Below, piece after piece: positions 21,286-64,000 of a stretch of 64,000 nt of DNA. Both the position numbers and the translations under genes were made by a program. The DNA lies in assembly GCA_001793155.1 (NCBI GenBank), contig MGHI01000020.1, positions 9,898 through 73,897 on the forward strand, given 5' to 3'. Under the pieces are notes generated by a model, which did not search any database, was not told the DNA's origin, and saw only the letters and a program-made list of their open reading frames with translations. The first letter of the stretch is position 1. Each line of letters starts with the position of its first letter. This stretch comes from Candidatus Woesebacteria bacterium RIFCSPLOWO2_01_FULL_39_61. GTDB lineage: Bacteria > Patescibacteriota > Microgenomatia > UBA8517.

Positions 21286-22446
21286 ATGGAAAAGATAGTT
21301 ATTGTCATGGCTGCGTGGAACGAGGCAGAGAACATTAAGAAAATGATTGATACTTTATTTGACGAAGTTTTCCCCAAAATCGGTGCGGAAGTGCACCTTT
21401 TGGTTGCCGATAATCACTCGACCGACGGAATGACCCAGATTGTTGAGGAAGAGATGAAAAAGCGAAACAATCTTCATATTGTTCAGCAAACAAAAACAGG
21501 TTTAGGATATGCGTACGTAGACGGTTTTAAGTATGCAGTGGAAAAACTCGGCGCGGATGCAGTAATGGAGATGGATGCCGATGGCCAACATCCTCCGGAG
21601 TTCGTAAAACCCATGGTTGAAGCATATCTGTCTGGCGCGGAATATGTCATCGGATCAAGGTACATTCCCGGAGGATCTATTCCGAAAGAGTGGGCGTTTT
21701 TCAGAAAGTTTGTAAGCTATTTTGGGAATTTATACATTAGGCTGGTTTTACTTAAACCTTCGATTCACGATTTGACAACAGGATTCCGTCTTACTAGAGT
21801 GAAGGGTGTTTTGGATAAGATCAATCTCGATAATTTAATGGAGAAGGAAAGATTTGCTTATAAAGTCGATTTACTCTATCAAAGTATCAAAAATTCAAAA
21901 AAGACGGTTGAAGTACCCCTTGAATTTAAACCGCGAACAACCGACAAATCGAAATTTAATATAACGGAGACATTAGCTACTCTTAAAGTTGCAACTATAT
22001 TAGGTGTTAAGGATAAACAAAGATTTATTAAATTCGGGACGGTTGGGTTTATCGGTTATATTGTTAATGCAATCGGTCTTGAAGTATTCGCAAAGTTGAC
22101 TTTTCCCGAATGGGCTATATGGGCAGCAGCAACAGAACTTGCGATTATCAGCAACTTTATCTTAAATAATATTTGGACTTTTAAGGCAGAAAAAATTACA
22201 GGACTTACTCAATTATTAAGAAAATTTTTACAGTTTAACGGGACCAGCGTTGGGGCTTTGATAATTCAGGCGGTTTTCGGCACTCTCGGTGTTTTAGTCT
22301 TTGGCCCCGGCGCAAGACAGTTAATATTACCGTTTATCATACTGTTTTTGGTGTTACCGTATAACTACTTTATGTATAACGCGGTTATCTGGAAGACTTG
22401 GAAACTTCCTTTCCTCGAAAAGATTAAAAGTAAATCCTCAAATTGA
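21286..22446 (+). CDS. polyprenol-phosphate glycosyltransferase (GT2, DPM1/Ppm1-like) fused to a GtrA-like 4-TM domain
   Basis: ..IVIVMAAWNEAENI..LLVADNHSTDG..MDADGQHPP.. then C-terminal ..FGTVGFIGYIVNAIGL..ISNFILNNIWTFK.. (GtrA family motif). Confidence 0.7.
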   Translation: MEKIVIVMAAWNEAENIKKMIDTLFDEVFPKIGAEVHLLVADNHSTDGMTQIVEEEMKKRNNLHIVQQTKTGLGYAYVDGFKYAVEKLGADAVMEMDADGQHPPEFVKPMVEAYLSGAEYVIGSRYIPGGSIPKEWAFFRKFVSYFGNLYIRLVLLKPSIHDLTTGFRLTRVKGVLDKINLDNLMEKERFAYKVDLLYQSIKNSKKTVEVPLEFKPRTTDKSKFNITETLATLKVATILGVKDKQRFIKFGTVGFIGYIVNAIGLEVFAKLTFPEWAIWAAATELAIISNFILNNIWTFKAEKITGLTQLLRKFLQFNGTSVGALIIQAVFGTLGVLVFGPGARQLILPFIILFLVLPYNYFMYNAVIWKTWKLPFLEKIKSKSSN

Positions 22447-22471
22447 GAGTTTTTGATAGATTATTAAAAGT

Positions 22472-23386
22472 ATGATTTTTTCAAGGAATATTTTAGGTAA
22501 AATGATCGAAATGGGTGTAAGTTCGGAAGAAAGAGAAAAAGAATTTGAGAGATTTATAGTAGCCCAATATTTAAGATACACTTCGGTTGACGAAGTATTC
22601 CGTAAAAATAATTATGATCTGCCGATATCCTACCCTGGTGTTCATCGACTTCTTGATCGCTGGGGAATCATTAAGGCTGCCGGTCCGAATTCAAAATTAT
22701 CGGAAGCCATTTGTTTTTTGACATGCCTTTCAGACCGAAAAATTCCTCTGGAGCGACTTTATAAGAATATGCCCCCTAGCTTTAAGACTTCAATGGCTAC
22801 AATGCACAGGATTATGCATAACGTAAAAAAGGGTGTTGTAAGAAGAGCTGGTACTGCTTTAATTGTTACACCGCACGATAGCCCGGATTCGTTTTTGGTC
22901 GGTAATGATATTTCCACTCCCAGAATCGAGTTCGGTAAACCATATGGCTCTGTTTCCGTACCCATGACATTTTCTAAGCGAAGAGAACCGGTTAAAGAGT
23001 CGATATTAAGGATACTTCAGCAGGAAGTTTTTACGGAAAATGTTCTTAGCGGACGAACTCCGTTTGAGGTTATACCTCAAAACCCCGAACCTTTTATGTA
23101 TCTTGATATTGCCGATGTCAGAGTGGGAGTATATAATATCCGGCTTCCGAAGGAGCTTTCCGATACACAGGCATTTTCAAGTTATAAACTCGAGAATTTC
23201 CGTTACATAAACTTTTCAGAAGTACAGGACAATCCCGAACAAAACTACAGGTCAGGAATTACCGAAATGGCGACGGGATACAATAATTATCTGCAGAAAG
23301 ATGCGCATGGATTTTCGTCTAAGCCGGTCTTTGAAATATCACTCCTGAATCAGCAATTAGCACTGCTCCCGCTGTACTCTCAATGA
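22472..23386 (+). CDS. hypothetical protein (possible N-terminal HTH)
   Basis: 304 aa, no recognisable catalytic motifs; ..YTSVDEVFRKNNYDLPISYPGVHRLLDRWGI.. is helix-turn-helix-like. Confidence 0.3.
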   Translation: MIFSRNILGKMIEMGVSSEEREKEFERFIVAQYLRYTSVDEVFRKNNYDLPISYPGVHRLLDRWGIIKAAGPNSKLSEAICFLTCLSDRKIPLERLYKNMPPSFKTSMATMHRIMHNVKKGVVRRAGTALIVTPHDSPDSFLVGNDISTPRIEFGKPYGSVSVPMTFSKRREPVKESILRILQQEVFTENVLSGRTPFEVIPQNPEPFMYLDIADVRVGVYNIRLPKELSDTQAFSSYKLENFRYINFSEVQDNPEQNYRSGITEMATGYNNYLQKDAHGFSSKPVFEISLLNQQLALLPLYSQ

Positions 23387-23596: not shown

Positions 23597-24754
23597 TTAG
23601 AGAAGAGGACCCCAATCGGAGATGGGCATCACATTTTGGGAGATATAGGTTATTGAGAAAAGATATATAGGTATGATAAGTACCATCATGACCAGTTTAA
23701 ATTCCTTTTTTAAGATCGTGTCAGAAAAAGCAATAAATAAAAACGGAACTATTGGAAGCGAGTATCTTATTAAATCCCTGTGAGACACAAAAAGGGTGGA
23801 GGCAAAAAATATTGCAGTAAACCAAGCGATTTCGAATTCTTTCATTTTAATTAATTTCAATATCCCCAAAATACCAAAAAGGTATACAAATATGATTTCT
23901 TCTAGCCAGTAAGTCCCGACCCAGGGTTGGCTGTAATTAAAAATTTGAAAAGGCGGAAAAAAAAGATGAATATTGTCCCCAGAATGAAAATAAGCAAAAA
24001 AATCATTTAATCTTACTTTGTATAAAACAAAAACAAGGATAAGTGACGAGGGTATTAGGAGTATTGATAGCAAGGCCTTGATATTCACGACCTGTTTCCA
24101 TTTTGAAAACGTTGCCGTTGCCGCATATTTTAAGTTCGGTAATAAAAGTATCATTAAATAAGCAATAAAAAGCAGAATTCCTGGGGACTTGGTCAGTTGG
24201 GCAATAACACCCCAAACTCCGGCCCTGAAATATTTTTTCTTTCTAAAATAAAAGACAGATGCAATAATGGCAGCTACAAAAAGAGGTTCGGGAGATCCTA
24301 CCGATCTGACTATTAACCATCGGGCTGGAAGTAGCGCAAAAACGGTTGTAATCCAGACAATACCCTTTTTGTCAACGAACTCGGAGACAATTCTTGAGAA
24401 GAAATATAAAGCCAATATTGAGGACAATAAGGTAATGCCAAGCATTGCATACGGAAAACCGGTATATTTGCCGATTAATCTAATAAGGACTGGATAAAGA
24501 GGGAGATGAGCAGCATAATAACCTGAGGGAAGTCCGAATTCGAAGTTATTAATCTCTGCGGGGTCATATAAACTTTTGGCAACTGCGATAAAAAGCGGTC
24601 CGTCGTAGTTTGCAACAATTGTTGCCATACCGCCCTTCGACAATGGGATTCCCCAAATACTTGGTAGTCTAAAAAAGAACGGAAACCAGATAAAAAGAGT
24701 GGGGATTAGCGATATGAGAATGATTGCGGCTAAATTCTTAAAATTTTTGCCCAT
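23597..24754 (-). CDS. multi-pass membrane protein (putative GT-C-like/unknown)
   Basis: 385 aa, about 10 predicted TM helices; diverges from the GT2 at 24852. Confidence 0.35.
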   Translation of the reverse strand: MGKNFKNLAAIILISLIPTLFIWFPFFFRLPSIWGIPLSKGGMATIVANYDGPLFIAVAKSLYDPAEINNFEFGLPSGYYAAHLPLYPVLIRLIGKYTGFPYAMLGITLLSSILALYFFSRIVSEFVDKKGIVWITTVFALLPARWLIVRSVGSPEPLFVAAIIASVFYFRKKKYFRAGVWGVIAQLTKSPGILLFIAYLMILLLPNLKYAATATFSKWKQVVNIKALLSILLIPSSLILVFVLYKVRLNDFFAYFHSGDNIHLFFPPFQIFNYSQPWVGTYWLEEIIFVYLFGILGILKLIKMKEFEIAWFTAIFFASTLFVSHRDLIRYSLPIVPFLFIAFSDTILKKEFKLVMMVLIIPIYLFSITYISQNVMPISDWGPLL

Positions 24755-24851: not shown

Positions 24852-25562
24852 ATGGCTTATTTACTTAAAGAACTATCGGTTTTTTTCCCGGTATATAACT
24901 TAGAAGCCCAGATTAAGGACACACTTGTTAATGCACTTGAGACGATTCCTAATTTGGCTGAAAAATACGAAATTATCGTAGTCAACGACGGGAGTTATGA
25001 TAGAACGGGCGAAATCCTATCCGAAATTGCTAAGAAAAATACAAATATACGAATAATTACCCACAAAAATAATCGCGGGTATGGAGGGGCATTAAAATCA
25101 GGGTTTTATGGTTCCAAATATGAATGGATTGCGTTTACCGATGCCGACGGACAGTTTGACATTTCCGAACTTCCTAACTTGATTAATTTACAGAAGCGAA
25201 CCAAGGCAGATTTGGTTGTCGGATACTATATGAAAAGAGCCGTTAAGTTTTACAGAAAAGTAAACACTTGGCTTTGGCAGCTTGTTGTGAGAATACTTTT
25301 CGGATTAAACGTAAAGGATATTGATTGCGGTTTTAAGTTAATTTCAAAAAAGGTACTCTCCGGAATTGACCCACTGGAGTCGGAAAGGGGAGCCTTTGTT
25401 TCGAGCGAATTTTTAATTAAGGCGCAAAAAGCAGGATTTAAGATAGTGGAAATAGGAGTCCATCATTATCCCAGAACCGAAGGAAGGGGAACCGGAGCGG
25501 ATTTAAATGTAATAATCAGGAGCTTTATTGACCTTTTCAAATTATGGAAAAAACTCAGATGA
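24852..25562 (+). CDS. polyprenol-phosphate sugar synthase-type GT2 (DPM1-like)
   Basis: ..FPVYNLEAQI..IVVNDGSYDRTGEIL..FTDADGQFD..DCGFKLISKK.. DPM1/GtrB-type motifs, 236 aa soluble. Confidence 0.75.
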   Translation: MAYLLKELSVFFPVYNLEAQIKDTLVNALETIPNLAEKYEIIVVNDGSYDRTGEILSEIAKKNTNIRIITHKNNRGYGGALKSGFYGSKYEWIAFTDADGQFDISELPNLINLQKRTKADLVVGYYMKRAVKFYRKVNTWLWQLVVRILFGLNVKDIDCGFKLISKKVLSGIDPLESERGAFVSSEFLIKAQKAGFKIVEIGVHHYPRTEGRGTGADLNVIIRSFIDLFKLWKKLR

Positions 25563-25566
25563 AGAT

Positions 25567-27177
25567 ATGTTATCGTACCTTAGTAAATTGATTAATAAGA
25601 TAAGGCTTTGGATTAAAGATAATCCCAGAGAGGCTTTTTTGATTTTTATAATTCTTCTTATTGGAGCTTCTTTCAGGCTTTATAGGATCGGTGAGTATAT
25701 GATTTTTTTGGGCGATGAGGGGAGAGATGCAATTGTCGTGAGGCGTCTTTTGGTGAATTTTGATCCGATACTTATTGGACCTGGAACTTCTATAGGCAAC
25801 ATGTACCTGGGGCCTTTGTATTACTATATGATCGCTCCGGCACTTTTACTCGCTAATTTTTCACCGGTGGGGCCGTCGGTTTTGGTAACCCTTTTTGGAA
25901 TTGCAACTATATTTTTGGTTTGGATGATGGGACGCGAGTGGTTTGGAAATACCGCCGGAATGATAGCCTCGTTTTTTTATTCGATAGCGCCAGTAGTTAT
26001 TACTTTTTCAAAGTCTTCCTGGAACCCTAATATAATGCCTTTTTTTGCTCTGATATCCATATATTCGATTTGGAGAGTTTGGCAATACAAAGAATTTAAG
26101 TGGCTTTTTGCACTTGGAGTATTTTTCGCAATTATTCTTCAATCGCATTATTTAGGTCTGCTTTTAGCTCCCACACTTGGACTATTCTGGGTTTTAACTT
26201 ATTTAAAAAATAGAAAATCAAGTTCTGAAATTAAGAATTTTACAAAATATTCCATATTGGGTATCGGAACTTTTGCTATTCTTATGTCTCCGTTGGTAAT
26301 TTTTGATGCCCGGCACGAATGGCGCAATTTCGGGGCGATAAAATTATTTTTCTTAGAGAGACAAACGACTGTGTCAGCGCGTCCCTGGAGCGGAATTTCA
26401 AAAATACCTGAATTGATCGACCAGGTAAATTTATCTCTCCTTAGTTCACAAAACGCGGATATATCCTGGATTTACACTTATCTTTTTTACCCAGGATTTA
26501 TTGTATTATTCTTATTTATTCTTTTGAAAAGTACCCGGAAGATTTCCCCGGATAAGAAATCTTGGTTAAATATTTTTAAAAAACTAGATTCAAAATACGT
26601 GGCCTCTTACTTTTTACTCGTTGCATGGCTTGGCGTATCTTTTGTAGGCTTATCTTTGTACAAACAACACATATACGACCACTACTATGGTTTTTTCTTT
26701 CCGGCACCCTTTTTATTGGCCGGAGCAGTGAGTCAATATGTAGTTAAAAACTCCAGCCGGTTGGTTAAAATAACACTAGCTGTATTTTTGATATATGCAG
26801 TCTATATAAATTTATCCAATAGCCCAATAAAATACTCACCGAATAGACAAATGCAGAGGGCGGTTGGTGTTGCCAGGGAAATCCAAAAACAGGCAAACGG
26901 TGAGAAATTTAATCTCGCAGTACTGGCTGAGCGAAATTATGAAGACGGATACCAATATTTTTTGGAAAAATGGGGTGAGCCGGTTTACGATATTGACCCC
27001 TTAAAACTCGAGGAAACTTTGGCAAGTCAACTTTTTGTCGTTTGCGAAATGCCGAAGGAAAAATGCGATCCAACCCATAGCCCAAAAGCAGAAGTAGCAA
27101 ATTTCGGCTGGAGCAAGATTGAAGAAGAATGGGAAGTTAACGGAGTAACTGTCTATAAATTAATCCACGCGCAATGA
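25567..27177 (+). CDS. GT-C-fold membrane glycosyltransferase, ArnT/PMT (GT39/GT83)-like, paralog A
   Basis: Start at the internal ATG just after the upstream stop; ..RLYRIGEYMIFLGDEGRDAIVVRR..GPLYYYMIAP.. with about 11 TM; C-terminal Cys-containing soluble domain. Confidence 0.65.
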   Translation: MLSYLSKLINKIRLWIKDNPREAFLIFIILLIGASFRLYRIGEYMIFLGDEGRDAIVVRRLLVNFDPILIGPGTSIGNMYLGPLYYYMIAPALLLANFSPVGPSVLVTLFGIATIFLVWMMGREWFGNTAGMIASFFYSIAPVVITFSKSSWNPNIMPFFALISIYSIWRVWQYKEFKWLFALGVFFAIILQSHYLGLLLAPTLGLFWVLTYLKNRKSSSEIKNFTKYSILGIGTFAILMSPLVIFDARHEWRNFGAIKLFFLERQTTVSARPWSGISKIPELIDQVNLSLLSSQNADISWIYTYLFYPGFIVLFLFILLKSTRKISPDKKSWLNIFKKLDSKYVASYFLLVAWLGVSFVGLSLYKQHIYDHYYGFFFPAPFLLAGAVSQYVVKNSSRLVKITLAVFLIYAVYINLSNSPIKYSPNRQMQRAVGVAREIQKQANGEKFNLAVLAERNYEDGYQYFLEKWGEPVYDIDPLKLEETLASQLFVVCEMPKEKCDPTHSPKAEVANFGWSKIEEEWEVNGVTVYKLIHAQ

Positions 27178-28199
27178 AATTTAAAGAAACAACTTCAAAA
27201 TATCAAACTTTACATTCTCATACTATAGTATCTGATGGATTAATGTCCTACAAGGAAGTTTTGGAAGTTTGTGAATCTAACAATATTGGTGTAGTTGCAT
27301 TTACTGATCATGACAGTGTCCCGAAAGAGTCACGGGTAAAGGAGTTAGTTGATAGGAAAAATAATAAGACTAAGTGGATAATCGGAATTGAAATTTCTGC
27401 TGATAAACCGGATGATTTTGATAAAAAATTTACTCCTCATATTGTCGGTTTGTTTGTGAATCCTTATGACGCAAATCTTCTCAAGCATTGTAAATTAGCT
27501 CAAGAAGCAAGAAAAGAAAGAATGAGCCGTATTGTAAAAAATCTAAATAAAATAGGTTTTATAGTGACTGAGAAAGATTGTTTAGCAGCTTCTAAAGGTG
27601 AAGCAGTTGGTAGTCCGCACATTGTTCAGGCGATTAAATCTAAAAAGGAGAATATTATTTTAATAGAGAAACTAAGAGTTCAAATGAAAAGAGACGCTAA
27701 GGATAACAAAATATTAAAAGAGAAATACGATAAAATGATTAAAAGAGGTGTGGATCAATATCCATATGTTCTGTTTTTAAGTAGTGATTCATATATTCAA
27801 GGAATATATGTTAATTACCTTTATCGAATTGATTTGGATACAAGCGTCAAACTGATTAGAGACGCAGGAGGTCTGGCATTCTTTGCCCATTGGTTCACAG
27901 AAATTGAAGATTGCGATGCATATTTGATGGAGAAATTATTAAAAGAAAACCGTATTGACGGCGCCGAAACTATTTACGGATTTTATGACAATATTAAAAA
28001 AGATTTTATAAAACAAAGAGAAATACTACAGTCTTTAATTAAAAAATATAATAGACTGGAAAGCGGTGGAGTAGACGCACATAATAAAAACCAAATAGAA
28101 GATTTTGCCAAAGACGAATGGTATGCTGGACTGACTATCGGAATGACAGAAAGAATATTATCCAGCGGTAAGGTTGATAAGAAATGGAGCTCTTTATGA
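27174..28199 (+). CDS. PHP-domain metal-dependent phosphoesterase
   Basis: ..LHSHTIVSDGLMSYKEVLEVCESNNIGVVAFTDHDSV.. PHP motif I/II; ATGA overlap with the upstream gene. Confidence 0.65.
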   Translation: MKFKETTSKYQTLHSHTIVSDGLMSYKEVLEVCESNNIGVVAFTDHDSVPKESRVKELVDRKNNKTKWIIGIEISADKPDDFDKKFTPHIVGLFVNPYDANLLKHCKLAQEARKERMSRIVKNLNKIGFIVTEKDCLAASKGEAVGSPHIVQAIKSKKENIILIEKLRVQMKRDAKDNKILKEKYDKMIKRGVDQYPYVLFLSSDSYIQGIYVNYLYRIDLDTSVKLIRDAGGLAFFAHWFTEIEDCDAYLMEKLLKENRIDGAETIYGFYDNIKKDFIKQREILQSLIKKYNRLESGGVDAHNKNQIEDFAKDEWYAGLTIGMTERILSSGKVDKKWSSL

Positions 28200-28254
28200 T
28201 TTATTATTTTCCTTATGATCAAGCTGTAGAAAAAAACAGATGTTTCCAAAAAAT

Positions 28255-28659
28255 ATGCCAAAAAAAATCAGAAAATTTAAATTTGAAAAATTGGCCAGAG
28301 ATGAAATAGTGCAGGGGATTATCGGAGCCGGTAATAAACCCACACTCCGTACGTTGATGACCGACGAGTATATAGAAGAGCTTAAGAAAAAGATTCTGGA
28401 AGAAGCAATGGAGCTAAATAAAGCAAAAGAAAAGGAGGAGATTTTGGAGGAATTGGCAGACATAGAGGAAGTTACCGAAAATATTCTCAGAGCATTCGGG
28501 TTGAGAAAATACGAAATCCTGAAAATCCAGCGAAAGAAAAATGCCAAAAGAGGGTCGTTCAAGAAAAGACATTACGTGGAAAAAGTCGAAGTGGAAGATG
28601 GGAATGAATGGCTCGACTATTATCTTTCAAACCCCGATAAATATCCTGAAATTAAATAA
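28255..28659 (+). CDS. MazG/HisE-like nucleotide pyrophosphohydrolase (tentative)
   Basis: Small helical protein with ..EEAMELNKA..EEILEELADIEEV.. EExxE-type motifs. Confidence 0.35.
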   Translation: MPKKIRKFKFEKLARDEIVQGIIGAGNKPTLRTLMTDEYIEELKKKILEEAMELNKAKEKEEILEELADIEEVTENILRAFGLRKYEILKIQRKKNAKRGSFKKRHYVEKVEVEDGNEWLDYYLSNPDKYPEIK

Positions 28660-32725: not shown

Positions 32726-32816
32726 ACAAAGAATATCACAAAATCTAAACCAGCTATATCAGTTCATTGAATCAGTTCACGTTTGGTGTAAAAATAGATT
32801 ATATCAACCGAAAAAA

Positions 32817-51474: not shown

Positions 51475-51476
51475 AT

Positions 51477-54923: not shown

Positions 54924-55586
54924 ATGGTAAAAACTGATGAAAGAAAATTAGCCGAAGAACTTCACGAAAAGGTACCCGCCAATTGGTATTATCAGTCTTT
55001 GAAAGTAGACCCCTTGCAAAGATATTGGCATATGCGAAGATTTAAAGAGATAGGGAAATTAATAGAACCTGCCAGAGGAAAAGTTTTAGATGTTGGTAGC
55101 GCGGACGGCGTGTTTTCAAACGTAATTTTAAAAAAAAGCGGAGCTAAAGAATTAGTTGGATTAGAGGTATTGAAAAAATCCGTCGATTGGGCGAATAAGC
55201 ATTGGAGGACAAATAAGAAAATGAAGTTTATGGTTGGTGATGCCCACGATTTGAATTTTAAATCCAATTCCTTTGATGCGGTTTTTTGTCTTGAAGTCTT
55301 AGAACATGTAAAAAATCCCACGAAAGTACTTAAAGAATTTAAAAGGGTAATGAAAAAAGGAGGATATGGCGTATTTTTGGTTCCATCGGATAACGACCTT
55401 TTTAAAATAATCTGGTATTTGTGGCTCCATTTTTATCCAAGGGGATGGGTTTGGAGAGATACGCACATCCAAACTTATAGAAACGATTTTCTACCCAAGA
55501 TGTGTAAAAAGACAGGATTTAAGGTTGAAACCGAAAAGAAATTTTTATTGGGAATGTTGTACGTTGTAAAAGTAAGAAAGATTTAG
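54924..55586 (+). CDS. class I SAM-dependent methyltransferase
   Basis: ..KVLDVGSADGVFS..FDAVFCLEVLEHV..GGYGVFLVP.. Confidence 0.7.
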   Translation: MVKTDERKLAEELHEKVPANWYYQSLKVDPLQRYWHMRRFKEIGKLIEPARGKVLDVGSADGVFSNVILKKSGAKELVGLEVLKKSVDWANKHWRTNKKMKFMVGDAHDLNFKSNSFDAVFCLEVLEHVKNPTKVLKEFKRVMKKGGYGVFLVPSDNDLFKIIWYLWLHFYPRGWVWRDTHIQTYRNDFLPKMCKKTGFKVETEKKFLLGMLYVVKVRKI

Positions 55587-56526: not shown

Positions 56527-57135
56527 ATGAATAATAAAATTAAATTTATATTCTTTGATGTCGGAGGAGTTTTTTGCGACACAGAACTCATATACGATGA
56601 ACTTTCTTTAAAGTTTGGAAGAAATAGGGATCATATGAAAGCATCGCATGTCAAATATGTAAACCTGGCATGCCTGGGGGGTCTTTCCGTGCACGATGTT
56701 TGGGATTTAATCAGGGAAGATTTGGAAATAAATCCTAAAGACAACTTCAATTTTTTAGAATTTTCTACAGATAAACTTATCCCGATACCGTTAGCCCATG
56801 AATTAGCAAAAGAGTTAGCCCACAGTTATAAGATTGGACTTATTACCGACGTAGAGCGCGATGTGTTTGAAAAAAGTCTGGAAAAGGGAAATGTTCCTGA
56901 TATAAACTACTCGGCTATCATAAAGTCTTCTGACCATAAAATTATTAAACCTGATGTTAGAATTTATCAGATTGCAGAGGAAAAATCCGGTGCGACAGGA
57001 CCCGAGATATTATATGTGGAGGATGTAGCAGAAAATGTGGAAGCCGCACAAAAATTCGGATGGAAGGCAGTAAGGTTCTTGACTAACGATCCGGAAGCTT
57101 CAATTAAACAAATCAAAAGTATATTATCCGGATAA
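56527..57135 (+). CDS. HAD-superfamily hydrolase (subfamily IA-like)
   Basis: Motif I ..FIFFDVGGVF.., motif II ..IGLITDV.., C-terminal ..YVEDVAENVEAAQKFGW.. Confidence 0.6.
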   Translation: MNNKIKFIFFDVGGVFCDTELIYDELSLKFGRNRDHMKASHVKYVNLACLGGLSVHDVWDLIREDLEINPKDNFNFLEFSTDKLIPIPLAHELAKELAHSYKIGLITDVERDVFEKSLEKGNVPDINYSAIIKSSDHKIIKPDVRIYQIAEEKSGATGPEILYVEDVAENVEAAQKFGWKAVRFLTNDPEASIKQIKSILSG

Positions 57136-57137: not shown

Positions 57138-58874
57138 GTGTTTAAAAAAAAGATAAACTTGTATCTTTTGATAACCCTTTTGTTAGCAGGTTTATTAAGA
57201 ATTTGGAAATTAAATAAGGTTCCTGTTTCCTTATTTGCGGACGAATTAGACGTTGGATATCAAGCTTATTCGATTATTCACACGGGCCGGGATTACTTTG
57301 GCAATCTCTTACCTCTTCATTTTCACTCTTATGCGGATTTTCGCGCACCTTTTTATATTTATTCTGCAATTCCGACTGTCGCGATATCCGGAATTTCTGC
57401 CTGGGGAGTCCGTCTTCCTGCAGCCATATTTGGGACTTTAGGTGTTTTGGGAATATATTTACTGGTTGAAGAAATTTTAAAAATTGAAAAATTTAAAGCA
57501 ATCAACGGCCGGAAATTGGCATTTGTTTCGGCTTTAGTATTAACTTTTTCCCCCTGGCACATTCAATATTCCCGCGCAGCATTTGAGGTTACAGAGCTAT
57601 TGTTTTTTTACCTTATCGGCTTTTATTTTTTCTTTAAGTTTTTACGATCCAGAAAATATCTATGGGCATCGGTTCTGTCTTTTTCAATTACTCCCTGGAT
57701 TTATTCAACGGCAAAGCTTTTTACATCTTTGATTTTTATATTCCTTTTTTTAGCTTGGCGAAAAGACTTAATTAAGTTGTCTATGAGACAGAAATTGAAT
57801 ACAATAATTATCGCAGGAGTTTTGTGGCTTCCTTTGTTATATGCAAACCTTTTCGGAGGAGCATCCTTTCGGTTTAACTACATTAGCATTTTTACGAATC
57901 CTACAACACCCGGTGAAGTTCAAAACCTAAGACTTAATGACGCTCGGGTAAGAGAAAGATATGGAGGAGGTATCTTACAAAAAGTGGCAAGCCGGCTGAT
58001 CCATAATAAATATCTATTCTGGAGTGAAAGGATTGTCGATAATTATTTTAAAACCGCCTCATCCGAGTTTCTTTTCGTAGAAGGCGATCCGAATTTACGG
58101 CATTCGATAAACAAAATCGGACAATTTTATAAAATCGAGGCAATCGCACTAATTTTGGGAGCGATTTTCTTTTTCGTATCAAAAACTGGGAGAAAATTAA
58201 AATTACTGATTTCCTTCTGGATATTCGCTGGTATTTTTCCTTCAGCTCTGACGCGCGATGGGGGAAACCACGCAACTCGTCTAATTTTAATTCTCCCGCC
58301 TTTGATATTTTTGATTTCGTTTGGAATTATCGACTCTATAGATAAGCTTAAAGGGAAGTTGAAATATATTATTGTAGTGCTTTATTTAGGGTTTTGGCTT
58401 TTGGATTTCGGTCTTTACCAACACCTTTACTGGATTCACAATCCCTGGTATAGCGAACGATCTTGGCACGCCGGCTATAAAGAGGCAGTATTGGCAGCTA
58501 AAAAATTTGAAGACGATTACGGAAAGATAATATTTTCCAACGCCAGCGACGACCCGCGAATCTTTTTAGCATCTTATTATCCTTATTACCCCCAGCTTTG
58601 GCAAAATGGAATGTTAGAAGAAACAGTTCCAGGTTTCGGAAACATAGAGCATATGGGTAAATTCTACTTTGGACAGGTTGACGGTGAGATTGGCATAGAT
58701 AAAATTTCTGATTTCTTAGCTATGGATACCTTATATATCGCTGCGTCCAGAGAAATTCAAGGGAATTTAATAAGGGATCCAGGTAAAGTTCCGCAAGGGC
58801 TTAAACTCGTTGAATCAGTTTCTTATCCTTCTGGAGAACCCGCTTTTTATCTTTTCGAGCGAAGCGAGAAATGA
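57138..58874 (+). CDS. GT-C-fold glycosyltransferase, ArnT/PMT (GT39/GT83)-like, paralog I
   Basis: GTG start; ..KVPVSLFADELDVGYQAYSIIHTGRDYFGNLLP..; about 12 TM. Confidence 0.7.
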   Translation: MFKKKINLYLLITLLLAGLLRIWKLNKVPVSLFADELDVGYQAYSIIHTGRDYFGNLLPLHFHSYADFRAPFYIYSAIPTVAISGISAWGVRLPAAIFGTLGVLGIYLLVEEILKIEKFKAINGRKLAFVSALVLTFSPWHIQYSRAAFEVTELLFFYLIGFYFFFKFLRSRKYLWASVLSFSITPWIYSTAKLFTSLIFIFLFLAWRKDLIKLSMRQKLNTIIIAGVLWLPLLYANLFGGASFRFNYISIFTNPTTPGEVQNLRLNDARVRERYGGGILQKVASRLIHNKYLFWSERIVDNYFKTASSEFLFVEGDPNLRHSINKIGQFYKIEAIALILGAIFFFVSKTGRKLKLLISFWIFAGIFPSALTRDGGNHATRLILILPPLIFLISFGIIDSIDKLKGKLKYIIVVLYLGFWLLDFGLYQHLYWIHNPWYSERSWHAGYKEAVLAAKKFEDDYGKIIFSNASDDPRIFLASYYPYYPQLWQNGMLEETVPGFGNIEHMGKFYFGQVDGEIGIDKISDFLAMDTLYIAASREIQGNLIRDPGKVPQGLKLVESVSYPSGEPAFYLFERSEK

Positions 58875-58960: not shown

Positions 58961-59911
58961 ATGCACACCCTTTCCGTTATAGTTCCCTTTTTCAACGAAG
59001 TAGAGAATTTACCAATTTTACATAAAGAATTAGTAGAGGTTTTGAAAAAGTTAGGTATTGAAAGCGAAATTGTCTATGTCAACGATGGGAGTTCCGATGA
59101 TTCCCTAAATGTTTTGAAAAAAGAAGTCGGCAGGACCAAAGGTAGTATACCGACAAAAGTAATTGAATTTAAAAAGAATTTTGGCCAGACCGCGGCTGTA
59201 GTTGCCGGGATAGACAACGTAGATGGAAAATATGTTTCTTTTCTTGATGCAGATTTGCAAAATGATCCTCATGATATTCCGAGGTTTATGCAAAAATTGA
59301 ATGAAGGGTATGACGCAGTATTCGGCTGGAGAAAAGAAAGAAAAGATACAAACTTAAGAAGTTTTTTATCAAGGATGGCAAATACTATAATTAATGTCGT
59401 GTTTGCCTATCCTTATCATGACGTCGGTTGTTCGGCAAGAATAGTAAAAAAAGAATATTTAAACAATTTACAACTTTACGGAGAACTTCACAGGATAATG
59501 CCTGTTCTTATTTATTTAAAAGGTGCCAAGATTGGAGAGATTGTTGTCACTCATAGGGCAAGAAAGGCGGGTAAGTCAAAATACGGTTTCGAAAGAATAG
59601 TTAAGACGATAATTGATATTATTACTGTAAAGTTTTTGACTTCCTATGGGACCAGACCGGCTTATGTATTTGGTTCTTTTGGTTTAGTCAGTTTGTTTAT
59701 AAGCGGCACAGCGCTACTGGGTTCGGCTTACAAAAAGATTTTTTTAGGAGTGTTTGTCCATACAGACCCTCTTTTCATGATTGCCATATTTTTTGGATTA
59801 GTCGGAATACAGTTTGTTTTGATGGGACTTCTTGCCGAACTCCAAGTCCGTACCTACTTCGAATCGCAAAAAAAATCTATTTATGAAATTAAGACTGTCA
59901 GTAAACTTTAA
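58961..59911 (+). CDS. polyprenol-phosphate glycosyltransferase, GtrB/ArnC family (GT2 with C-terminal TM pair)
   Basis: ..LSVIVPFFNEVENL..VYVNDGSSDDS..FLDADLQNDP..; C-terminal 2 TM ..GLVGIQFVLMGLLAE.. typical of GtrB/ArnC. Confidence 0.8.
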   Translation: MHTLSVIVPFFNEVENLPILHKELVEVLKKLGIESEIVYVNDGSSDDSLNVLKKEVGRTKGSIPTKVIEFKKNFGQTAAVVAGIDNVDGKYVSFLDADLQNDPHDIPRFMQKLNEGYDAVFGWRKERKDTNLRSFLSRMANTIINVVFAYPYHDVGCSARIVKKEYLNNLQLYGELHRIMPVLIYLKGAKIGEIVVTHRARKAGKSKYGFERIVKTIIDIITVKFLTSYGTRPAYVFGSFGLVSLFISGTALLGSAYKKIFLGVFVHTDPLFMIAIFFGLVGIQFVLMGLLAELQVRTYFESQKKSIYEIKTVSKL

Positions 59912-61755
59912 TGTGTGGGATAGCAGGTTATGTGGATTTTGAAGGTGAGACCGACCCAAAAGTATTGGGTAGAATGACTGACTCGATCGCTTATCGCGGG
60001 CCGGACTCTTCAGGAAAATACTTCAATAAAGATAAATCAGTCGGGCTGGGCATTAGGAGATTGAGTATCATTGATTTAGCAACAGGTGACCAGCCGATAA
60101 AAAATGAGGACGGGAACGTTGTTGTCGTTTACAACGGCGAGATTTATGGTTATAAAAATCTTCGCGACGATCTTATCAAAAACGGACATAAGTTAAAAAC
60201 AAAAAGCGACACCGAAACGCTGGTGCATTTATATGAGCAATACGGCGAAAAAATGGCGGGTATGTTAAACGGTATGTTTGCATTCGTGATTTGGGACGAA
60301 AAAAATCAAAAGCTTTTCATTGCAAAAGACAGATACGGAATTAAACCGTTGTATTATACCGTAGTCGGCAAAAAGTTGATTTTTGGTTCCGAACCCAAAT
60401 CAATTTTGAGTAACTCCGGATTTAAAAAAGCTGTCTCCGACGAAGGTCTGAGTTCATATTTTTATTTAGGGTACACCCTAGGTGAAAAGTCGATCTACAG
60501 GAATATTTTTAAATTACTTCCCGGTCACTATTTGACTTTCGATAAGTGGGGGTTGAAAGTCCAAAGCTATTTTGAGCTAGGACAAAATAAAGAACTAGAA
60601 AATGCTAATTTGGATTCGCTTTTGGAAAAGTCAGTCCAAACTCAATTAATTTCTGATGTTCCGGTTGGTGTTTTTCTAAGCGGAGGATTAGATTCAAGCT
60701 TAATAGCTTACTATATTTCGAAGTTTAAAAAACTAAAATCCTTTTCAATCGGGTTTAAGGAGGAAGGATATGATGAATCCTTCCATGCCCACTATGTAGC
60801 GAAAAAAATAGGGACGGAACACTATAGCGAAGAATATTCACCTGAAGATGTTATCGATTCTTTTAATCAAATTACCTCAAGACTGGATGAACCATTTGCG
60901 GACGCGTCTTTGTTTCCTACATTCAAAGTCAGTAAGCTTGCCAGGCAATATGTAAAGGTTGTTTTATCTGGCGACGGTGGAGATGAGCTTTTCGGTGGTT
61001 ATCCGACATATCAAGCGCACTTGTTTAAAAATTACGTGGATAAACTTTACTTTCTTAACGGCGATACGCTTTTAAGTTTCCTGAATTTTACTCCGGATTT
61101 TTTGCTTAATCTTTTGCCGGTATCGTTTAAAGACTATCCGAAAAAAAAATTGGCTAAAATTGTCCTTAATGGATTGAAAATAAAAGATTCGGATCAGAGG
61201 CACTTTTACTGGATGAGAACTTTTTTCTTGGGCGAAGAGCGTATTTACCAGAAGGACCATAATAAAAGCGAATTAAAATTAAGCTTAAGTTATAAACTTG
61301 ATGATACGCATATAAATGTCGGACAGTTGATTGATTTCCATTCTTATTTGCCGGATGATTTTTTCTTTAAAGTCGATAGAGCCTCCATGTATAACTCTCT
61401 CGAGGTAAGGGTTCCATTTATGGATAATAATGTAGTTGACTATGCCTTTTCCACAAAAAAAACACACCTTAATTTACTTAAAACAAAAATTCAATTGAGA
61501 TCTTTGCTTAAAGAAAAACTGCCCGAAATAGCAAAAAGACCAAAAAAAGGCTTTGGTATACCTTTGGAAATCTGGCTTAAGGGGGATCTGAAGGAGCTGG
61601 GAAAGGCAGCGATTTCCAACGAAAAAATGTATGAATATGTAAATGAAAAAAAGATCAAAAAACTGTGGGATGATCATCAAAGCGGGGAGAAGAATAACTC
61701 GGGAAATTTGTGGCTTCTGATTATGTTTTCTGGATGGCTCAAAAATTGGAGTTGA
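59911..61755 (+). CDS. asnB: asparagine synthase (glutamine-hydrolysing)-family amidotransferase
   Basis: N-terminal MCGIAGY (Ntn Cys2), ..SGGLDSS.. PP-loop; starts with a 1-nt overlap (TAATG) on the preceding stop. Confidence 0.85.
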   Translation: MCGIAGYVDFEGETDPKVLGRMTDSIAYRGPDSSGKYFNKDKSVGLGIRRLSIIDLATGDQPIKNEDGNVVVVYNGEIYGYKNLRDDLIKNGHKLKTKSDTETLVHLYEQYGEKMAGMLNGMFAFVIWDEKNQKLFIAKDRYGIKPLYYTVVGKKLIFGSEPKSILSNSGFKKAVSDEGLSSYFYLGYTLGEKSIYRNIFKLLPGHYLTFDKWGLKVQSYFELGQNKELENANLDSLLEKSVQTQLISDVPVGVFLSGGLDSSLIAYYISKFKKLKSFSIGFKEEGYDESFHAHYVAKKIGTEHYSEEYSPEDVIDSFNQITSRLDEPFADASLFPTFKVSKLARQYVKVVLSGDGGDELFGGYPTYQAHLFKNYVDKLYFLNGDTLLSFLNFTPDFLLNLLPVSFKDYPKKKLAKIVLNGLKIKDSDQRHFYWMRTFFLGEERIYQKDHNKSELKLSLSYKLDDTHINVGQLIDFHSYLPDDFFFKVDRASMYNSLEVRVPFMDNNVVDYAFSTKKTHLNLLKTKIQLRSLLKEKLPEIAKRPKKGFGIPLEIWLKGDLKELGKAAISNEKMYEYVNEKKIKKLWDDHQSGEKNNSGNLWLLIMFSGWLKNWS

Positions 61756-61792
61756 TCTGGTTGTCAGCTCTTCTTTGAGTTAAAATTAGACA

Positions 61793-63487
61793 GTGACGTC
61801 AAAGAATTTCAAAAATAAAGCCCTTTTTCTTTTGGTTATATTTTGTTTTACGGTGGGGATTTTTTTGAGAGTTTGGAAAATTAATCGAGTGCCTCCCGAG
61901 CTCTTCGGCGATGAACTAGACGTCGGACTCCAGGCTTATTCTATAGCTACAACAGGCAAAGATTATTTAGGAAATAAACTGCCTGTAATGTTTCACTCCT
62001 TCTCAGAATATCGTCTGCCCATGCAGCTTTATTTTGACGTCCCCTTCGTGAAGTTATTCGGTTTAAACGAAATCGGAGTAAGAAGCCCCTCGGTTTTTAT
62101 GGGTTTTTTGAGTTTAATTTTCATTTACTTACTAGCTAAGGAAATTTTCACTAAAAGGTTGGCTTTAATAACGACCGTTTTTTTAATGATTTCACCATGG
62201 CATTTTAATTTTTCCCGTCAGGCTAATGACGCAGGCATTTTACTTCCTTTTTTATTAGCCGGGACGTGGTTATTTATAAAAGGTCTCAAAAATTACAAGT
62301 ATTTATTTGCCTCAGTCGTAACGTTTGCCTTGAGTATTTATTCATACACAATTGCCACCGCTTTTACCCCGCTTTATTTTCTGTCTTTGGTAATAATTTT
62401 CAGAAAGGAATTGCAAAAATACCCCTTCACAAAGCTTTTTTGGATCGGAATCGTGGGTCTTTTGTTAATCTTTCCTTACATTAACTTCACGCTTAAAGGT
62501 ATTTCAACCCAACGCTTTTCCTATATAAGCTCTATTTCGGAAGATAAACTTATGGAAGAAATAGTTGCGAAAAGGAGATGGTCAAAGTCATTTTTAACAA
62601 GAGCGCTATATAACAAAATTACCGTGGGAACGGAAATAGTGTTTAAAAATTATTCCAGAAGTATGTCTTTTAACTTTCTTTTTACCGAGGGGGATCCTAA
62701 TATGCGACAGGGAATAGAGGGTTTTGGACAGTTTTATCATTATGATGCCGTACTGATATTTTTGGGTCTAATTTATTCCTTTTGGAATATAAGGAAGGGT
62801 TCTAAAAACACTAAATTCTATTTATTAATATTTCTTTGGCTACTCTTTTCACCTTTACCTTCCGCTCTGACAAAAGACGGCGGTTACCACGCCTCGCGTC
62901 TTATTTTAATGCTTCCACCTTTAATTTTACTTTCGGCGTTGGGATTTCAATCACTGATCAAAAGTGCAACTAAGATTAAAATGAAAGCATTATTCGGGGT
63001 TTTTATCATCTTCATGCTTTTGGACTTTACCAGGTTTGTCCACAGGTATTTTACTATTTGGCCTAAAGAGGGCTGGCGATTTTGGCAGACCGGTTTTAAG
63101 GAAACTTTAGCTTTTGTAAAATCTCAGGACAACAAATATCAAAGAATATTTTTAAACAATACCTACGAACCGATGCTGCCGCGTTTCCTTTTTTGGTATG
63201 GGTACGACATGGATCTTTTCCAAAAACAATTTGTGAAAGATGTACCCACAGAGAATATTTACCCCGGGTTTAACGGTTTTAAGCTTGGGGATAAATATTA
63301 TTTTGGAGAAATCCTGAAGCCGGTAGAGGGGTTGGCCAATAATGACAATTTGATCATAGCTTCCGGAGAAAAAGATATAACAAATCCCGCTATTTTTGAT
63401 AACGGAGGACTTGAGCTGCTTGAGGTTGTCTCTTCGCCAACCAAAATTCCAATTTTTTATGTATTTACAACCAAACAAACACCCTGA
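61793..63487 (+). CDS. GT-C-fold glycosyltransferase, ArnT/PMT-like, paralog II
   Basis: ..RVPPELFGDELDVGLQAYSIATTGKDYLGNKLP..; probable GTG start. Confidence 0.7.
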   Translation: MTSKNFKNKALFLLVIFCFTVGIFLRVWKINRVPPELFGDELDVGLQAYSIATTGKDYLGNKLPVMFHSFSEYRLPMQLYFDVPFVKLFGLNEIGVRSPSVFMGFLSLIFIYLLAKEIFTKRLALITTVFLMISPWHFNFSRQANDAGILLPFLLAGTWLFIKGLKNYKYLFASVVTFALSIYSYTIATAFTPLYFLSLVIIFRKELQKYPFTKLFWIGIVGLLLIFPYINFTLKGISTQRFSYISSISEDKLMEEIVAKRRWSKSFLTRALYNKITVGTEIVFKNYSRSMSFNFLFTEGDPNMRQGIEGFGQFYHYDAVLIFLGLIYSFWNIRKGSKNTKFYLLIFLWLLFSPLPSALTKDGGYHASRLILMLPPLILLSALGFQSLIKSATKIKMKALFGVFIIFMLLDFTRFVHRYFTIWPKEGWRFWQTGFKETLAFVKSQDNKYQRIFLNNTYEPMLPRFLFWYGYDMDLFQKQFVKDVPTENIYPGFNGFKLGDKYYFGEILKPVEGLANNDNLIIASGEKDITNPAIFDNGGLELLEVVSSPTKIPIFYVFTTKQTP

Positions 63488-63496
63488 ATAAATTAA

Positions 63497-64000
63497 GTGA
63501 AAGATAAAATACTATTATTTTTGATTATCATATCAGCACTTACCTTAAGAGTGGTTGGGATTTCAAAGTATCCGGTTGGATTGACGCAGGACGAAGCCGC
63601 CCAGGGATATGATACCTATTCACTACTCTTAACTGCTAAAGATCAGTGGGGAAACAGTTTTCCGTTGACTTTTAGATCATTGGGTGATTTTAAGCTTCCT
63701 CTTTATACCTATTTGAGCATACCTTCCGTAGCTGCCTTCGGATTAAACGAGTTTGCAGTAAGACTTCCGAACGCGCTACTTGCCACAGTTTCCGTTTTAG
63801 TAACTTATTTAATGGTGAATAAATTGACGGGTAAAAAACAATTAGCTCTCTTGTCAGCATTATTATTCTCTATTTCTCCCTGGCACATAGCATTATCTAG
63901 AGGTGCTTTTGAAGCCAACTTAACTACTCTATTAATACCGATCGGAATCCTGGCTTTTTATAAGGGTTTAGAAAAACCGAAGTGGATGATTTTAGCGGCG
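63497..64000 (+). CDS. GT-C-fold glycosyltransferase, ArnT/PMT-like, paralog III (3'-truncated at window end)
   Basis: Open frame from GTG 63497 to the window end: ..GLTQDEAAQGYDTYSLLLTAKDQWGNSFP..SPWHIALSRGAFEAN.. colinear with paralogs I and II. Confidence 0.55.
   Translation, partial: MKDKILLFLIIISALTLRVVGISKYPVGLTQDEAAQGYDTYSLLLTAKDQWGNSFPLTFRSLGDFKLPLYTYLSIPSVAAFGLNEFAVRLPNALLATVSVLVTYLMVNKLTGKKQLALLSALLFSISPWHIALSRGAFEANLTTLLIPIGILAFYKGLEKPKWMILAA

Follow-up and report, generated by a model that had tools for sequence, protein, structure and literature searches.

In mycobacteria and corynebacteria, lipid-monophosphate sugars, one of them supplied by the DPM1-like glycosyltransferase family 2 (GT2) enzyme Ppm1, feed many GT-C transferases (PimE, MptA/B/C, Emb, Aft and Pmt) that build glycoconjugates outside the membrane, namely, lipomannan and lipoarabinomannan (LM/LAM), arabinogalactan and O-mannosylated proteins (PMC3485146). 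Related arrangements are the GtrA/GtrB/Gtr* systems of Shigella and Salmonella phages (PMC11127046) and the CsbB/GtcA/YfhO (Bacillus and Listeria), PgfS/PgfM1/PgfM2 and GtrB/PgtC2 systems (PMC5836110, PMC7389260, PMC12041528). Here we describe a gene cluster of this kind in Candidatus Woesebacteria bacterium RIFCSPLOWO2_01_FULL_39_61, a groundwater bacterium with a tiny genome that belongs to the Microgenomates within the candidate phyla radiation (CPR). The stretch of DNA analyzed (the window) comprises 64,000 nucleotides (positions 9,898 to 73,897 of contig MGHI01000020.1, assembly GCA_001793155.1), and the cluster occupies window positions 21286 to 64000. Judged from its sequence, it is likely to be a lineage-conserved envelope-glycan supercluster, dedicated mainly to multi-donor glycosylation at the outside of the cytoplasmic membrane. 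Genes are referred to below by the lower coordinate of their open reading frame (Table 1).

The Ppm1 system is the closest to the cluster in logic. In both, a DPM1-like GT2 would provide a lipid-monophosphate sugar for many GT-Cs, and GT87 (PimE)-like, PMT-like and AftA-like folds are present in the cluster. Synthases made up of a catalytic domain only, with no transmembrane (TM) helices, also are a mycobacterial feature. Unlike the mycobacterial genes, which are dispersed and rely on one mannose synthase plus the decaprenylphosphoryl arabinose pathway, those described here are clustered and include five synthases, together with PTPS_related, YfhO and three Pfam-less families; there is no phosphoribosyl pyrophosphate-based pentofuranose branch and no mycolate envelope. 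As in the phage Gtr systems, the synthase encoded by 58961 has the length of GtrB and two TM helices, and GT-C genes follow it, but the cluster has no GtrA, has many GT-Cs per synthase and is vertically inherited rather than phage borne, and neither an O antigen nor an outer membrane is expected in this organism. With the CsbB and Pgf systems it shares a monoderm setting and the combination of a GtrB/CsbB-type GT2 with a YfhO protein (52435), and both 58961 and 39363 have PgfS near the top of their NCBIfam matches. However, the scores lie far under the equivalog cutoffs, YfhO is only 1 of 15 GT-Cs, and the window contains neither GtcA/GtrA nor teichoic acid genes. The archaeal DPMS/AglB systems provide a further parallel: 21286 has the full architecture and the catalytic residues of the Pyrococcus furiosus enzyme (PfDPMS), and 47879, which adjoins a Wzx gene, is predicted to have an STT3-like fold without the WWDxG motif.

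The chemistry therefore is of the established kind that pairs a lipid-monophosphate sugar with a GT-C (Gtr, CsbB/GtcA/YfhO, Pgf, Ppm1 and the pentofuranose three-component systems), and the mechanism class is not new. What is distinctive is the packing of five synthases and no fewer than 15 GT-Cs from six families into about 43 kb, in an order conserved across a CPR class and without a GtrA gene; the coupling of three catalytic-domain-only synthases to GT-Cs; and the inclusion of three Pfam-less GT-C families, among them an STT3/AglB look-alike lacking a WWD motif and encoded next to Wzx. To our knowledge, this is the densest GT-C cluster, even if it should turn out to be only a large Gtr-type decoration locus.

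An initial annotation of this DNA had placed five GT2 genes with DPM1/CsbB/GtrB-type motifs at 21286, 24852, 34301, 39363 and 58961, and our analysis bears this out. All five products match PF00535 strongly and carry a DxD motif (DADGQH, DADGQF, DMDQST, DADLSV and DADLQN, respectively), and their closest solved relatives are DPMS, GtrB or ArnC, with alignments that span the catalytic domain and reach residues 171 to 370. PfDPMS was aligned with each of the 13 window GT2s, and residue roles were taken from its structure paper (PMC5526996). The DxD motif, the equivalent of R131 (in IFH1, usually YRK) and the D..G/S-F/A loop were kept in all five; R117 and the acceptor-loop residue R202 each were kept in four, and the position of S135 is Ser in three, Thr in one and Gly in one. 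GtrB itself has no clear counterparts of S135 and R131 (PMC5526996), so partial retention of these residues is not decisive. The eight other GT2s of the window (49669, 50587, 55588 and five at 2749 to 8260) lack the IFH1 and loop motifs and align with the NCBIfam ArnC model over about 100 N-terminal residues at most, some of them not at all. The short GT2s group with polyprenyl-phosphate synthases rather than with soluble glycan GT2s.

The five proteins differ in how closely they resemble solved enzymes. The 21286 product matches PfDPMS (5mlz) end to end (9e-34; residues 3 to 370 versus 24 to 373) and keeps DADxQH and the equivalents of R117, R131, S135, R202 and K208. The top PDB matches of 24852 were ArnC (3e-13), GtrB and DPMS, with residues 5 to 215 aligned and the motifs DADGQ, YRK (IFH1) and D..GF present; 39363 aligned with DPMS over residues 6 to 231 (2.5e-20) and carries DAD, R117, YRE and D..GF. 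The weakest member, 34301, shares 30% identity with 39363 over its full length and has DMD, R117, YRK..S and D..GF. C-terminal TM helices are found in 21286 (PF04138) and 58961 (two helices) and are absent from 24852, 34301 and 39363. PfDPMS from which the TM domain (residues 230 to 352) was deleted still is targeted to the membrane and is as active as the wild type (PMC5526996), which makes the three TM-less proteins plausible enzymes. The initial annotation described 21286 as a GT2 fused to a GtrA-like flippase domain. This is correct as far as the domains are concerned, but the arrangement is the ordinary archaeal DPMS architecture, and its TM domain, which DPMS does not need for catalysis (PMC5526996), is at most a candidate flippase. 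A search for the donor sugars through NCBIfam equivalogs and the guanine and mannose contacts of PfDPMS gave no assignment. We name no donor, since no equivalog cutoff was reached and the equivalent of PfDPMS D39 in 21286 is Asn. By sequence, the five GT2s are members of the family and not orthologues of a named enzyme.

The fifth synthase raises the question of an ArnC/ArnT-like pathway, in which the PMT_2 proteins would be ArnT-like enzymes fed by an ArnC-like synthase and would decorate lipid A or other lipids with sugars of the aminoarabinose type. ArnC is the nearest relative of 58961 (1e-43), the PMT_2 family contains ArnT, and genes for an aminotransferase and an amidotransferase are nearby. 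The ArnC score of 58961 is 180 bits, however, against an equivalog cutoff of 529 (PgfS, at 130 bits, also is below its cutoff), and its DxD motif, DADLQND, is close to the DADLQD of GtrB. ArnA, ArnB (DegT type) and ArnD are not encoded there, the nearby aminotransferase belongs to class III and is missing in relatives, and the window carries genes for a sortase and its substrate. CPR bacteria are generally regarded as single membraned and free of lipid A, which likewise counts against such a pathway. We find it scarcely credible and rejected it on the ArnC score below cutoff, the lack of ArnA, ArnB and ArnD, and the presence of the sortase and its substrate.

Pfam and NCBIfam families were assigned to the window open reading frames of at least 100 amino acids, and TM helices were counted by a hydropathy scan. 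Twelve genes of the cluster match PMT_2, PMT, PTPS_related, GT87 or YfhO, families that we take to belong to the GT-C clan; the Pfam cutoffs were 26.1 bits for PF13231 (PMT_2), 22.7 for PF02366 (PMT) and 25 for PF09594 (GT87). Between 21286 and 64000 we count 14 solid GT-C genes (seven PMT_2, three PTPS_related, one GT87-like, one YfhO and two without a Pfam model) and one probable gene, 23597. The figure of about 17 given previously is too high for this region; 16 or 17 is reached only by adding a PMT_2 gene beyond the window and one or two polytopic genes upstream. GT-C genes make up 54% of the bases of the region.

Every full-length candidate has 6 to 11 TM helices (the truncated 63497 fragment shows 2), and each protein has an Asp/Glu motif soon after TM1, in what is predicted to be the first outside loop. 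These motifs are GDEGRD, YDQGRD, HDHD, GDEA, DELD (twice), QDEA, HDD (twice), HD, HPD, GD, GHDG and NYDGP. An acidic motif in the first loop is a hallmark of GT-Cs (PMC11127046, PMC12041528). It was invariant in four family alignments (D52 of 47879, D40 of 45072, D51 of 23597 and H30/D31 of PTPS_related). The PTPS_related profile is homologous to the PMT_2 paralogues (hhalign, 98.3%), and the YfhO protein 52435 gave 75% against the same paralogues. The GT87-like 38042 has an orthologue with a significant GT87 match in one distant Woesebacteria genome and gave 89% against the 45072 family. Two proteins with weak Pfam scores, 40081 and 57138, were accepted because they are clear paralogues of members above threshold (36% identity to 41760 and 35% to 61793, the latter over the full length); the PF02366 score of 57138, 17.9 bits, also is below cutoff. 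Paralogues within the window are old, with identities of 24 to 36%. Public gene calls for 32682 begin at the equivalent of 32817, and 63497 is followed, beyond the window, by a 285-amino-acid protein without an assigned function and then by another PMT_2 gene. As controls, the Wzx protein and a fusion of major facilitator superfamily (MFS) and spermidine synthase-like domains scored below 1% against every GT-C profile. The polytopic proteins fall into GT-C families and folds rather than transporter or permease families.

The gathering score of PF02366, the protein O-mannosyltransferase (GT39) model, was passed by 35040 and 63497 (37.1 bits for the latter), the other PMT_2 genes being below it or matching PMT_2 only, and five PMT_2 genes encode a DE motif in loop 1; neither feature specifies the type of acceptor. 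The cluster could serve chiefly for O-glycosylation, of the Ppm1/Pmt or the Pgf and GtrB-PgtC2 type, of Ser/Thr-rich S-layer, pilus or sortase-anchored proteins. Consistent with this, the C terminus of 52435 matches PgfM1, streptococcal YfhO-type GT-Cs glycosylate Ser/Thr-rich regions (PMC12041528), and upstream a sortase gene adjoins one for an fn3-domain protein that has both a TTTTTSS linker and the sorting signal LAATG. On the other hand, known protein O-glycosylation systems use far fewer GT-Cs than the 15, from six families, counted here, no gene for an acceptor protein lies inside the cluster, and PMT_2, YfhO and GT87 members elsewhere also act on lipids and polysaccharides. We consider such a restricted role possible but not the better guess. 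It is compatible with the envelope-glycan supercluster we propose, and the two are not mutually exclusive.

Two of the GT-Cs without a Pfam model, 45072 and 47879, flank the Wzx gene 46420 and match neither Pfam nor NCBIfam. Their predicted structures are confident, all-helical membrane bundles whose top fold matches are exclusively GT-C enzymes. For 45072, Foldseek returned yeast ALG6 (1e-6; TM-score, 0.65) and GPI-MT-I (4e-5), followed by PIG-U, PglB and PimE; its relatives are labeled "Gpi18-like mannosyltransferase" by JGI. The predicted structure of 47879 has the layout of AglB, a GT-C membrane domain followed by a C-terminal globular domain, and both parts are STT3/AglB-like. The family has at least 1,449 detected homologues, with identities of 53 to 66% among the 120 matches listed, making it the tightest of the three families searched, and 97 columns are invariant in an alignment of 56 sequences. 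Among the invariant motifs are GPNGHDG after TM1, PPRxLxxYESTA in the C-terminal domain and YxPxRPP after the last TM helix, at the place where STT3 enzymes carry WWDxG. No WWDxG or other WWD-type motif was found in 47879, nor any Pfam match at an E value of <5, and its family profile had no sequence match in the PDB. Since WWDxG and a Pfam STT3 match are lacking and YxPxRPP is present instead, 47879 is not an STT3-family protein by sequence, and activity directed at N-X-S/T sequons is unlikely. We do not classify it as an oligosaccharyltransferase, although it may act in a similar way with another acceptor.

The third such protein, 23597, is probably a GT-C. A HMMER search gave 473 representatives of its family, the profile of which matched that of the 45072 family (hhalign, 90.7%; E value, 1.2e-6; 240 columns), and 6 of 53 homologues have a PMT_2 match. 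When single sequences of 23597 and of the upstream polytopic proteins 8271 and 9818 were compared with GT-C profiles, hhalign gave 5 to 21%; a family profile raised 9818 (9818 to 11443) to 33%. A relaxed Pfam scan (E value of <5) of six unassigned proteins yielded nothing usable. The order 8271, 9818, 11462 is kept in metagenome contigs.

Table 1. Features of the window, with assignment and supporting evidence (TM, predicted transmembrane helices; aa, amino acids)
Position	Strand	Assignment	Evidence and remarks
21286..22446	+	DPMS-type synthase	PF00535 5e-22; PF04138 GtrA_DPMS_TM 4e-12; GT2 catalytic domain plus four-helix GtrA/DPMS TM domain
24852..25562	+	Short synthase-like GT2, 236 aa, no TM	PF00535 7e-30
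34301..35068	+	Short synthase-like GT2, 255 aa, no TM; weakest of the five	PF00535 6e-26
39363..40091	+	Short synthase-like GT2, 242 aa, no TM	PF00535 2e-37; starts a seven-gene overlapping run
58961..59911	+	GtrB/ArnC-type synthase, two C-terminal TM helices	PF00535; full-length ArnC 1e-43, GtrB 2.5e-30
23597..24754	-	Probable GT-C, 385 aa, no Pfam	~7 TM; NxDGP after TM1, D51 invariant
25528..27177, likely start ATG 25567	+	GT-C, PMT_2	PF13231 3e-11; 8 TM; GDEGRD after TM1
28708..30261	+	GT-C, PMT_2	PF13231 1.6e-6; 9 TM; YDQGRD after TM1
32682..34298, likely start 32817	+	GT-C, PMT_2	PF13231 7e-11; HDHD after TM1
35040..36638	+	GT-C, PMT_2/PMT	PF13231 1e-10; PF02366 25.7 bits (above 22.7); GDE after TM1
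38042..39316	+	GT-C, GT87 (PimE)-like	PF09594 23.6 bits, just under the cutoff of 25
40081..41763	+	GT-C, PTPS_related	Weak PF10131; 36% identity to 41760; HDD after TM1
41760..43424	+	GT-C, PTPS_related	PF10131 2e-11; H30 and D31 invariant in family alignment
43421..45079	+	GT-C, PTPS_related	PF10131 1e-15; subthreshold PMT_2 5.6e-5 (23.8 bits versus 26.1)
45072..46427	+	GT-C, no Pfam; ALG6/GPI-mannosyltransferase/PimE-like fold	Predicted model, pLDDT 91.8
47879..49606	+	GT-C, no Pfam; STT3/AglB/PglB/AftA-like fold, C-terminal globular domain	Predicted structure
52435..54921, likely start 52465	+	GT-C, YfhO, 828 aa	PF09586 2.7e-22; C terminus matches PgfM1
57138..58874	+	GT-C, PMT_2-like	PF13231 23.8 bits (below 26.1); DELD after TM1
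61793..63487	+	GT-C, PMT_2	PF13231 3e-15; DELD after TM1
63497..64000	+	GT-C, PMT/PMT_2, cut by window end (554 aa in full)	PF13231 3e-10; PF02366 3e-9
8271..9815	+	Probable GT-C, upstream	11 TM; family versus PMT_2 paralogues, hhalign 93.3%, 220 columns
22472..23386	+	Soluble protein, 304 aa, no predicted TM	No Pfam match at E<5
27174..28199	+	PHP-domain phosphoesterase	PF02811; best NCBIfam matches RNase RNM, 3',5'-nucleoside bisphosphate phosphatase
28240..28659	+	139-aa protein	Subthreshold Pfam only; no NCBIfam match
30365..32725	-	Fused MFS/spermidine synthase-like membrane protein, 786 aa, not GT-C	PF01564, PF07690; NF037959; hhalign <1%
36635..37885	+	Class III aminotransferase	PF00202 6e-79; NCBIfam equivalog cutoff not reached
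46420..47919	+	Wzx-type MOP flippase	PF13440 1.5e-52; NCBIfam MOP flippase/O-glycosylation flippase
49669..50574	+	Ordinary GT2	PF00535; no IFH1 YRK..S or D..GF; no ArnC/DPMS match
50587..51474	+	Ordinary GT2	PF00535; no IFH1 YRK..S or D..GF; no ArnC/DPMS match
51438..52508	+	GT4 (GT-B fold)	PF00534 2e-25
54924..55586	+	S-adenosylmethionine (SAM) methyltransferase	Pfam/NCBIfam
55588..56496	+	Ordinary GT2	Pfam/NCBIfam
56527..57135	+	HAD phosphatase	Pfam/NCBIfam
59911..61755	+	AsnB-type glutamine amidotransferase, of the kind in exopolysaccharide loci	PF00733 2e-86; TIGR01536 464 bits (above cutoff); TIGR03108 480 bits

The arrangement of the genes agrees with the earlier description of GT2s that are followed by, or lie among, polytopic GT-C genes. 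The junctions are +4 nucleotides (24852/25567), -29 (34301/35040) and -11 (39363/40081), and 58961 lies between 57138 and 61793. From 39363 to 49606, a GT2, three PTPS_related genes, the ALG6-like GT-C, Wzx and the STT3-like GT-C follow one another with overlapping stop and start codons in all seven genes, which suggests one operon with translational coupling. Promoter and terminator scans performed at chance level, and transcription units were not defined. The array is not strictly codirectional, as had been proposed, for 23597 to 24754 and 30365 to 32725 lie on the minus strand. The 242-amino-acid GT2 at 39363 to 40091 recurs as an identical copy, with the same neighbors, on contigs of independent ENA and JGI assemblies and in the NCBI assemblies GCA_001792385.1 and GCA_001793265.1; the arrangement therefore is not an assembly artifact.

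In order to assess conservation, we examined the context of three orthologues of the PTPS_related genes, 50 to 57% identical, in three Woesebacteria genomes. The order that is essentially kept in all three is short GT2, PMT_2, phosphoesterase, PMT_2, PMT_2, short GT2, PMT_2, (GT87), short GT2, three PTPS_related genes, the 45072-like gene, Wzx, the 47879-like gene and GT2s; the block is split and partly inverted in one of the three. Named homologues of the cluster proteins are nearly all from Woesebacteria, and the TrmD protein encoded at 15572 to 16279 has its nearest relatives in genomes of Patescibacteria and Candidatus Woesebacteria. Because the order is kept among Woesebacteria whose orthologues share only 50 to 55% identity, the cluster is an inherited core feature of the lineage and not a horizontally acquired island. 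The G+C fraction is 0.32 to 0.41 across the window, with no compositional break at 21286 to 64000. An array of more than 40 kb, as annotated initially, is real, but to call it an island is misleading given the G+C fraction, uniform at 0.35 to 0.40, and the conserved order. A mobile island is ruled out by the same two observations and by the position of the sole transposase-like gene (14335), which lies outside the cluster.

These findings bear on a second interpretation, that of an ordinary Wzx-dependent surface polysaccharide locus in which GT2/GT-C pairs of the Gtr type only add side-chain sugars once the chain has been polymerized and have multiplied under pressure from phages or host recognition. 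In its favor, the array also holds Wzx, the three ordinary GT2s, a GT4, a methyltransferase, an HAD phosphatase and AsnB; a block upstream adds RmlC, a further GT4, five more GT2s and methyltransferases; and side-chain systems of three components are common (PMC11127046). Against it, the paralogues are old (24 to 36% identity), and an order kept across Woesebacteria runs counter to the variability between strains that is expected of serotype-conversion modules. The window has no initiating phosphoglycosyltransferase, Wzy or chain-length regulator, and GT-C genes outnumber those for cytoplasmic glycosyltransferases in the region. We regard this interpretation as rather unlikely.

We favor the following scheme for the envelope-glycan supercluster. 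First, the five GT2s, one with DPMS architecture, one with GtrB/ArnC architecture and three of the catalytic-domain-only form, would use a nucleotide sugar to load polyprenyl phosphate with a monosaccharide on the cytoplasmic side of the membrane, as their sequence and structural homology suggests. Second, the lipid-linked sugars would be flipped, candidates being the GtrA-like TM domain of 21286, Wzx (46420) or a protein encoded at another place in the genome. Third, the GT-Cs, at least 15 and of six sequence families, would glycosylate acceptors outside the membrane; this role is predicted from their families, folds and motifs. Between two and four different GT-C genes follow a synthase gene, so one donor is likely to feed several linkage- or acceptor-specific transferases. 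This would be nearer to the mycobacterial arrangement, with Ppm1 as the donor synthase for PimE, MptA-C and Pmt, than to one decoration step. Fourth, the three ordinary GT2s, the GT4, the methyltransferase, the HAD phosphatase, AsnB and Wzx probably supply a lipid-linked oligosaccharide, which 47879 and/or 45072 would transfer or extend. The likeliest candidate acceptors are a polysaccharide or lipoglycan associated with the wall, surface proteins rich in Ser and Thr, or both. The match to the three-component scheme that had been proposed (precedents in PMC11127046, PMC12041528 and PMC5836110) thus holds for the synthase and the GT-C, which are present in each module, and fails for the separate GtrA gene. 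No stand-alone GtrA was found in the window, where the sole PF04138 match is the fused domain of 21286; intergenic gaps do not exceed 210 nucleotides in the region, so no GtrA gene has been overlooked.

A bolder version of this scheme is speculative and, in our judgment, improbable. It would have the main envelope glycoconjugate of Woesebacteria, and perhaps of Microgenomates in general, built almost wholly outside the membrane, with five different polyprenyl-phosphate sugars feeding a GT-C assembly line. The CPR-wide, WWDxG-less 47879 would be a new en bloc transferase that couples the Wzx-flipped oligosaccharide to protein or wall, and the TM-less synthases would dock on GT-Cs and so replace a flippase.

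Several observations weigh against the supercluster as we interpret it. The whole scheme is predicted from homology, and for most members GT-C status comes from Pfam, profile or fold evidence alone; PDB sequence searches with 61793 and with the PTPS_related, 45072 and 47879 family profiles returned no match. None of the five GT2s reached an NCBIfam equivalog cutoff (ArnC, PgfS, AglJ and PpgS). The resemblance of 34301 to DPMS is weak (9e-10, although DPMS is its top PDB match), it has no equivalent of R202, and its top NCBIfam matches are ordinary exopolysaccharide GT2s. A dedicated flippase was not found for four of the five modules. Finally, among the window open reading frames of at least 100 amino acids there is no initiating phosphoglycosyltransferase (Bac_transf or MraY/WecA type), Wzy, chain-length regulator (Wzz) or LCP ligase, so the Wzx branch is incomplete in the window; the same initiation, Wzy_C and Wzz families are absent from the gene tables of three distant Woesebacteria.

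Points such as the NCBIfam matches of 34301 could mean that the resemblance is superficial, the short GT2s being ordinary glycan-elongating enzymes and many of the polytopic proteins not glycosyltransferases at all. The Pfam scores of 38042, 40081 and 57138 below cutoff and the unclassified 9818 would fit this notion. Yet motifs separate the five candidates from the eight other GT2s, and they align with DPMS or ArnC over the full domain; the subthreshold GT-Cs are paralogues of members above threshold or have orthologues with significant matches, and the transporter controls stayed below 1%. We consider a superficial resemblance very unlikely.

CPR bacteria (Patescibacteria) are ultrasmall and mostly uncultivated, their surface chemistry is almost unknown, and their genomes typically are about 1 Mb; a related Woesebacteria contig is 925 kb long. 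At more than 40 kb, the cluster amounts to roughly 4% of a genome of about 1 Mb, an outlay which implies that the surface glycan probably is central to the cell, helping it, e.g., to recognize hosts, evade phages or keep its envelope intact. Leads on CPR surface chemistry include the five synthases, the 47879, 45072 and 23597 families, which lie outside Pfam, and the WWD-less STT3-like enzyme as a candidate for a new transferase specificity. Cultivated CPR/Patescibacteria live attached to host cells, and glycosylation in Saccharibacteria has been called "unexplored" (PMC11623550). In line with the initial annotation, which considered the system undescribed in this lineage, our searches of the literature on glycosyltransferases of CPR, Patescibacteria, Woesebacteria and Microgenomates found passing remarks and general three-component papers and no description of the cluster, although absence from the literature searched is no proof. 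Among the remarks are "possibly 8" dolichol-phosphate mannosyltransferase genes in Peribacteria and three in a Saccharibacterium (PMC4736985, PMC6031116).

Conventional cytoplasmic GT2s and GT4, Wzx and the tailoring genes account for about a third of the genes. The class III aminotransferase gene 36635 lies between the PMT_2 gene 35040, which it overlaps by 4 nucleotides, and the GT87-like 38042, and it is absent from this place in three distant Woesebacteria; sugar aminotransferases usually are of the DegT type. In the slot between the first two PMT_2 genes, occupied here by the PHP gene 27174, three distant Woesebacteria have a DHH-DHHA1 protein instead (contig coordinates 103 to 1089, 302 to 1297 and 18634 to 19623). 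PHP and DHH-DHHA1 are unrelated phosphoesterase folds that both have pAp-phosphatase/nanoRNase members, and the exchange therefore resembles a nonorthologous replacement in situ. The MFS/spermidine synthase fusion at 30365 to 32725 occurs in near-identical assemblies and is not found at this position in distant Woesebacteria.

Upstream of the cluster, positions 1 to 8260 hold a second glycan block with a C-methyltransferase, RmlC (dTDP-sugar epimerase), a GT4, five GT2s and an FkbM methyltransferase. The GT2s (2749 to 8260) are five paralogues, three of them 33 to 44% identical to each other, and the polytopic genes 8271 and 9818 follow the block. About 8 kb upstream of the cluster are genes for a secreted fn3-domain protein (12854 to 13720) and an adjoining sortase (13641 to 14273). 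In addition to a signal peptide and the TTTTTSS linker, the fn3 protein has a C-terminal sorting signal composed of LAATG, a hydrophobic stretch and KKRSDRKA; LAxTG signals are typical of class E sortases. Among the window proteins, the fn3 protein alone is a candidate acceptor, and a link to the cluster is speculative. An IS200/Y1-transposase-like open reading frame (14335 to 15009; PF01797, 1e-9) lies between the sortase gene and housekeeping genes, with the TrmD gene at 15572 to 16279. Directly upstream of 21286, positions 20275 to 21216 encode an NTPase_I-T protein (DUF84, inosine/xanthosine triphosphatase) with an N-terminal extension of about 150 amino acids.

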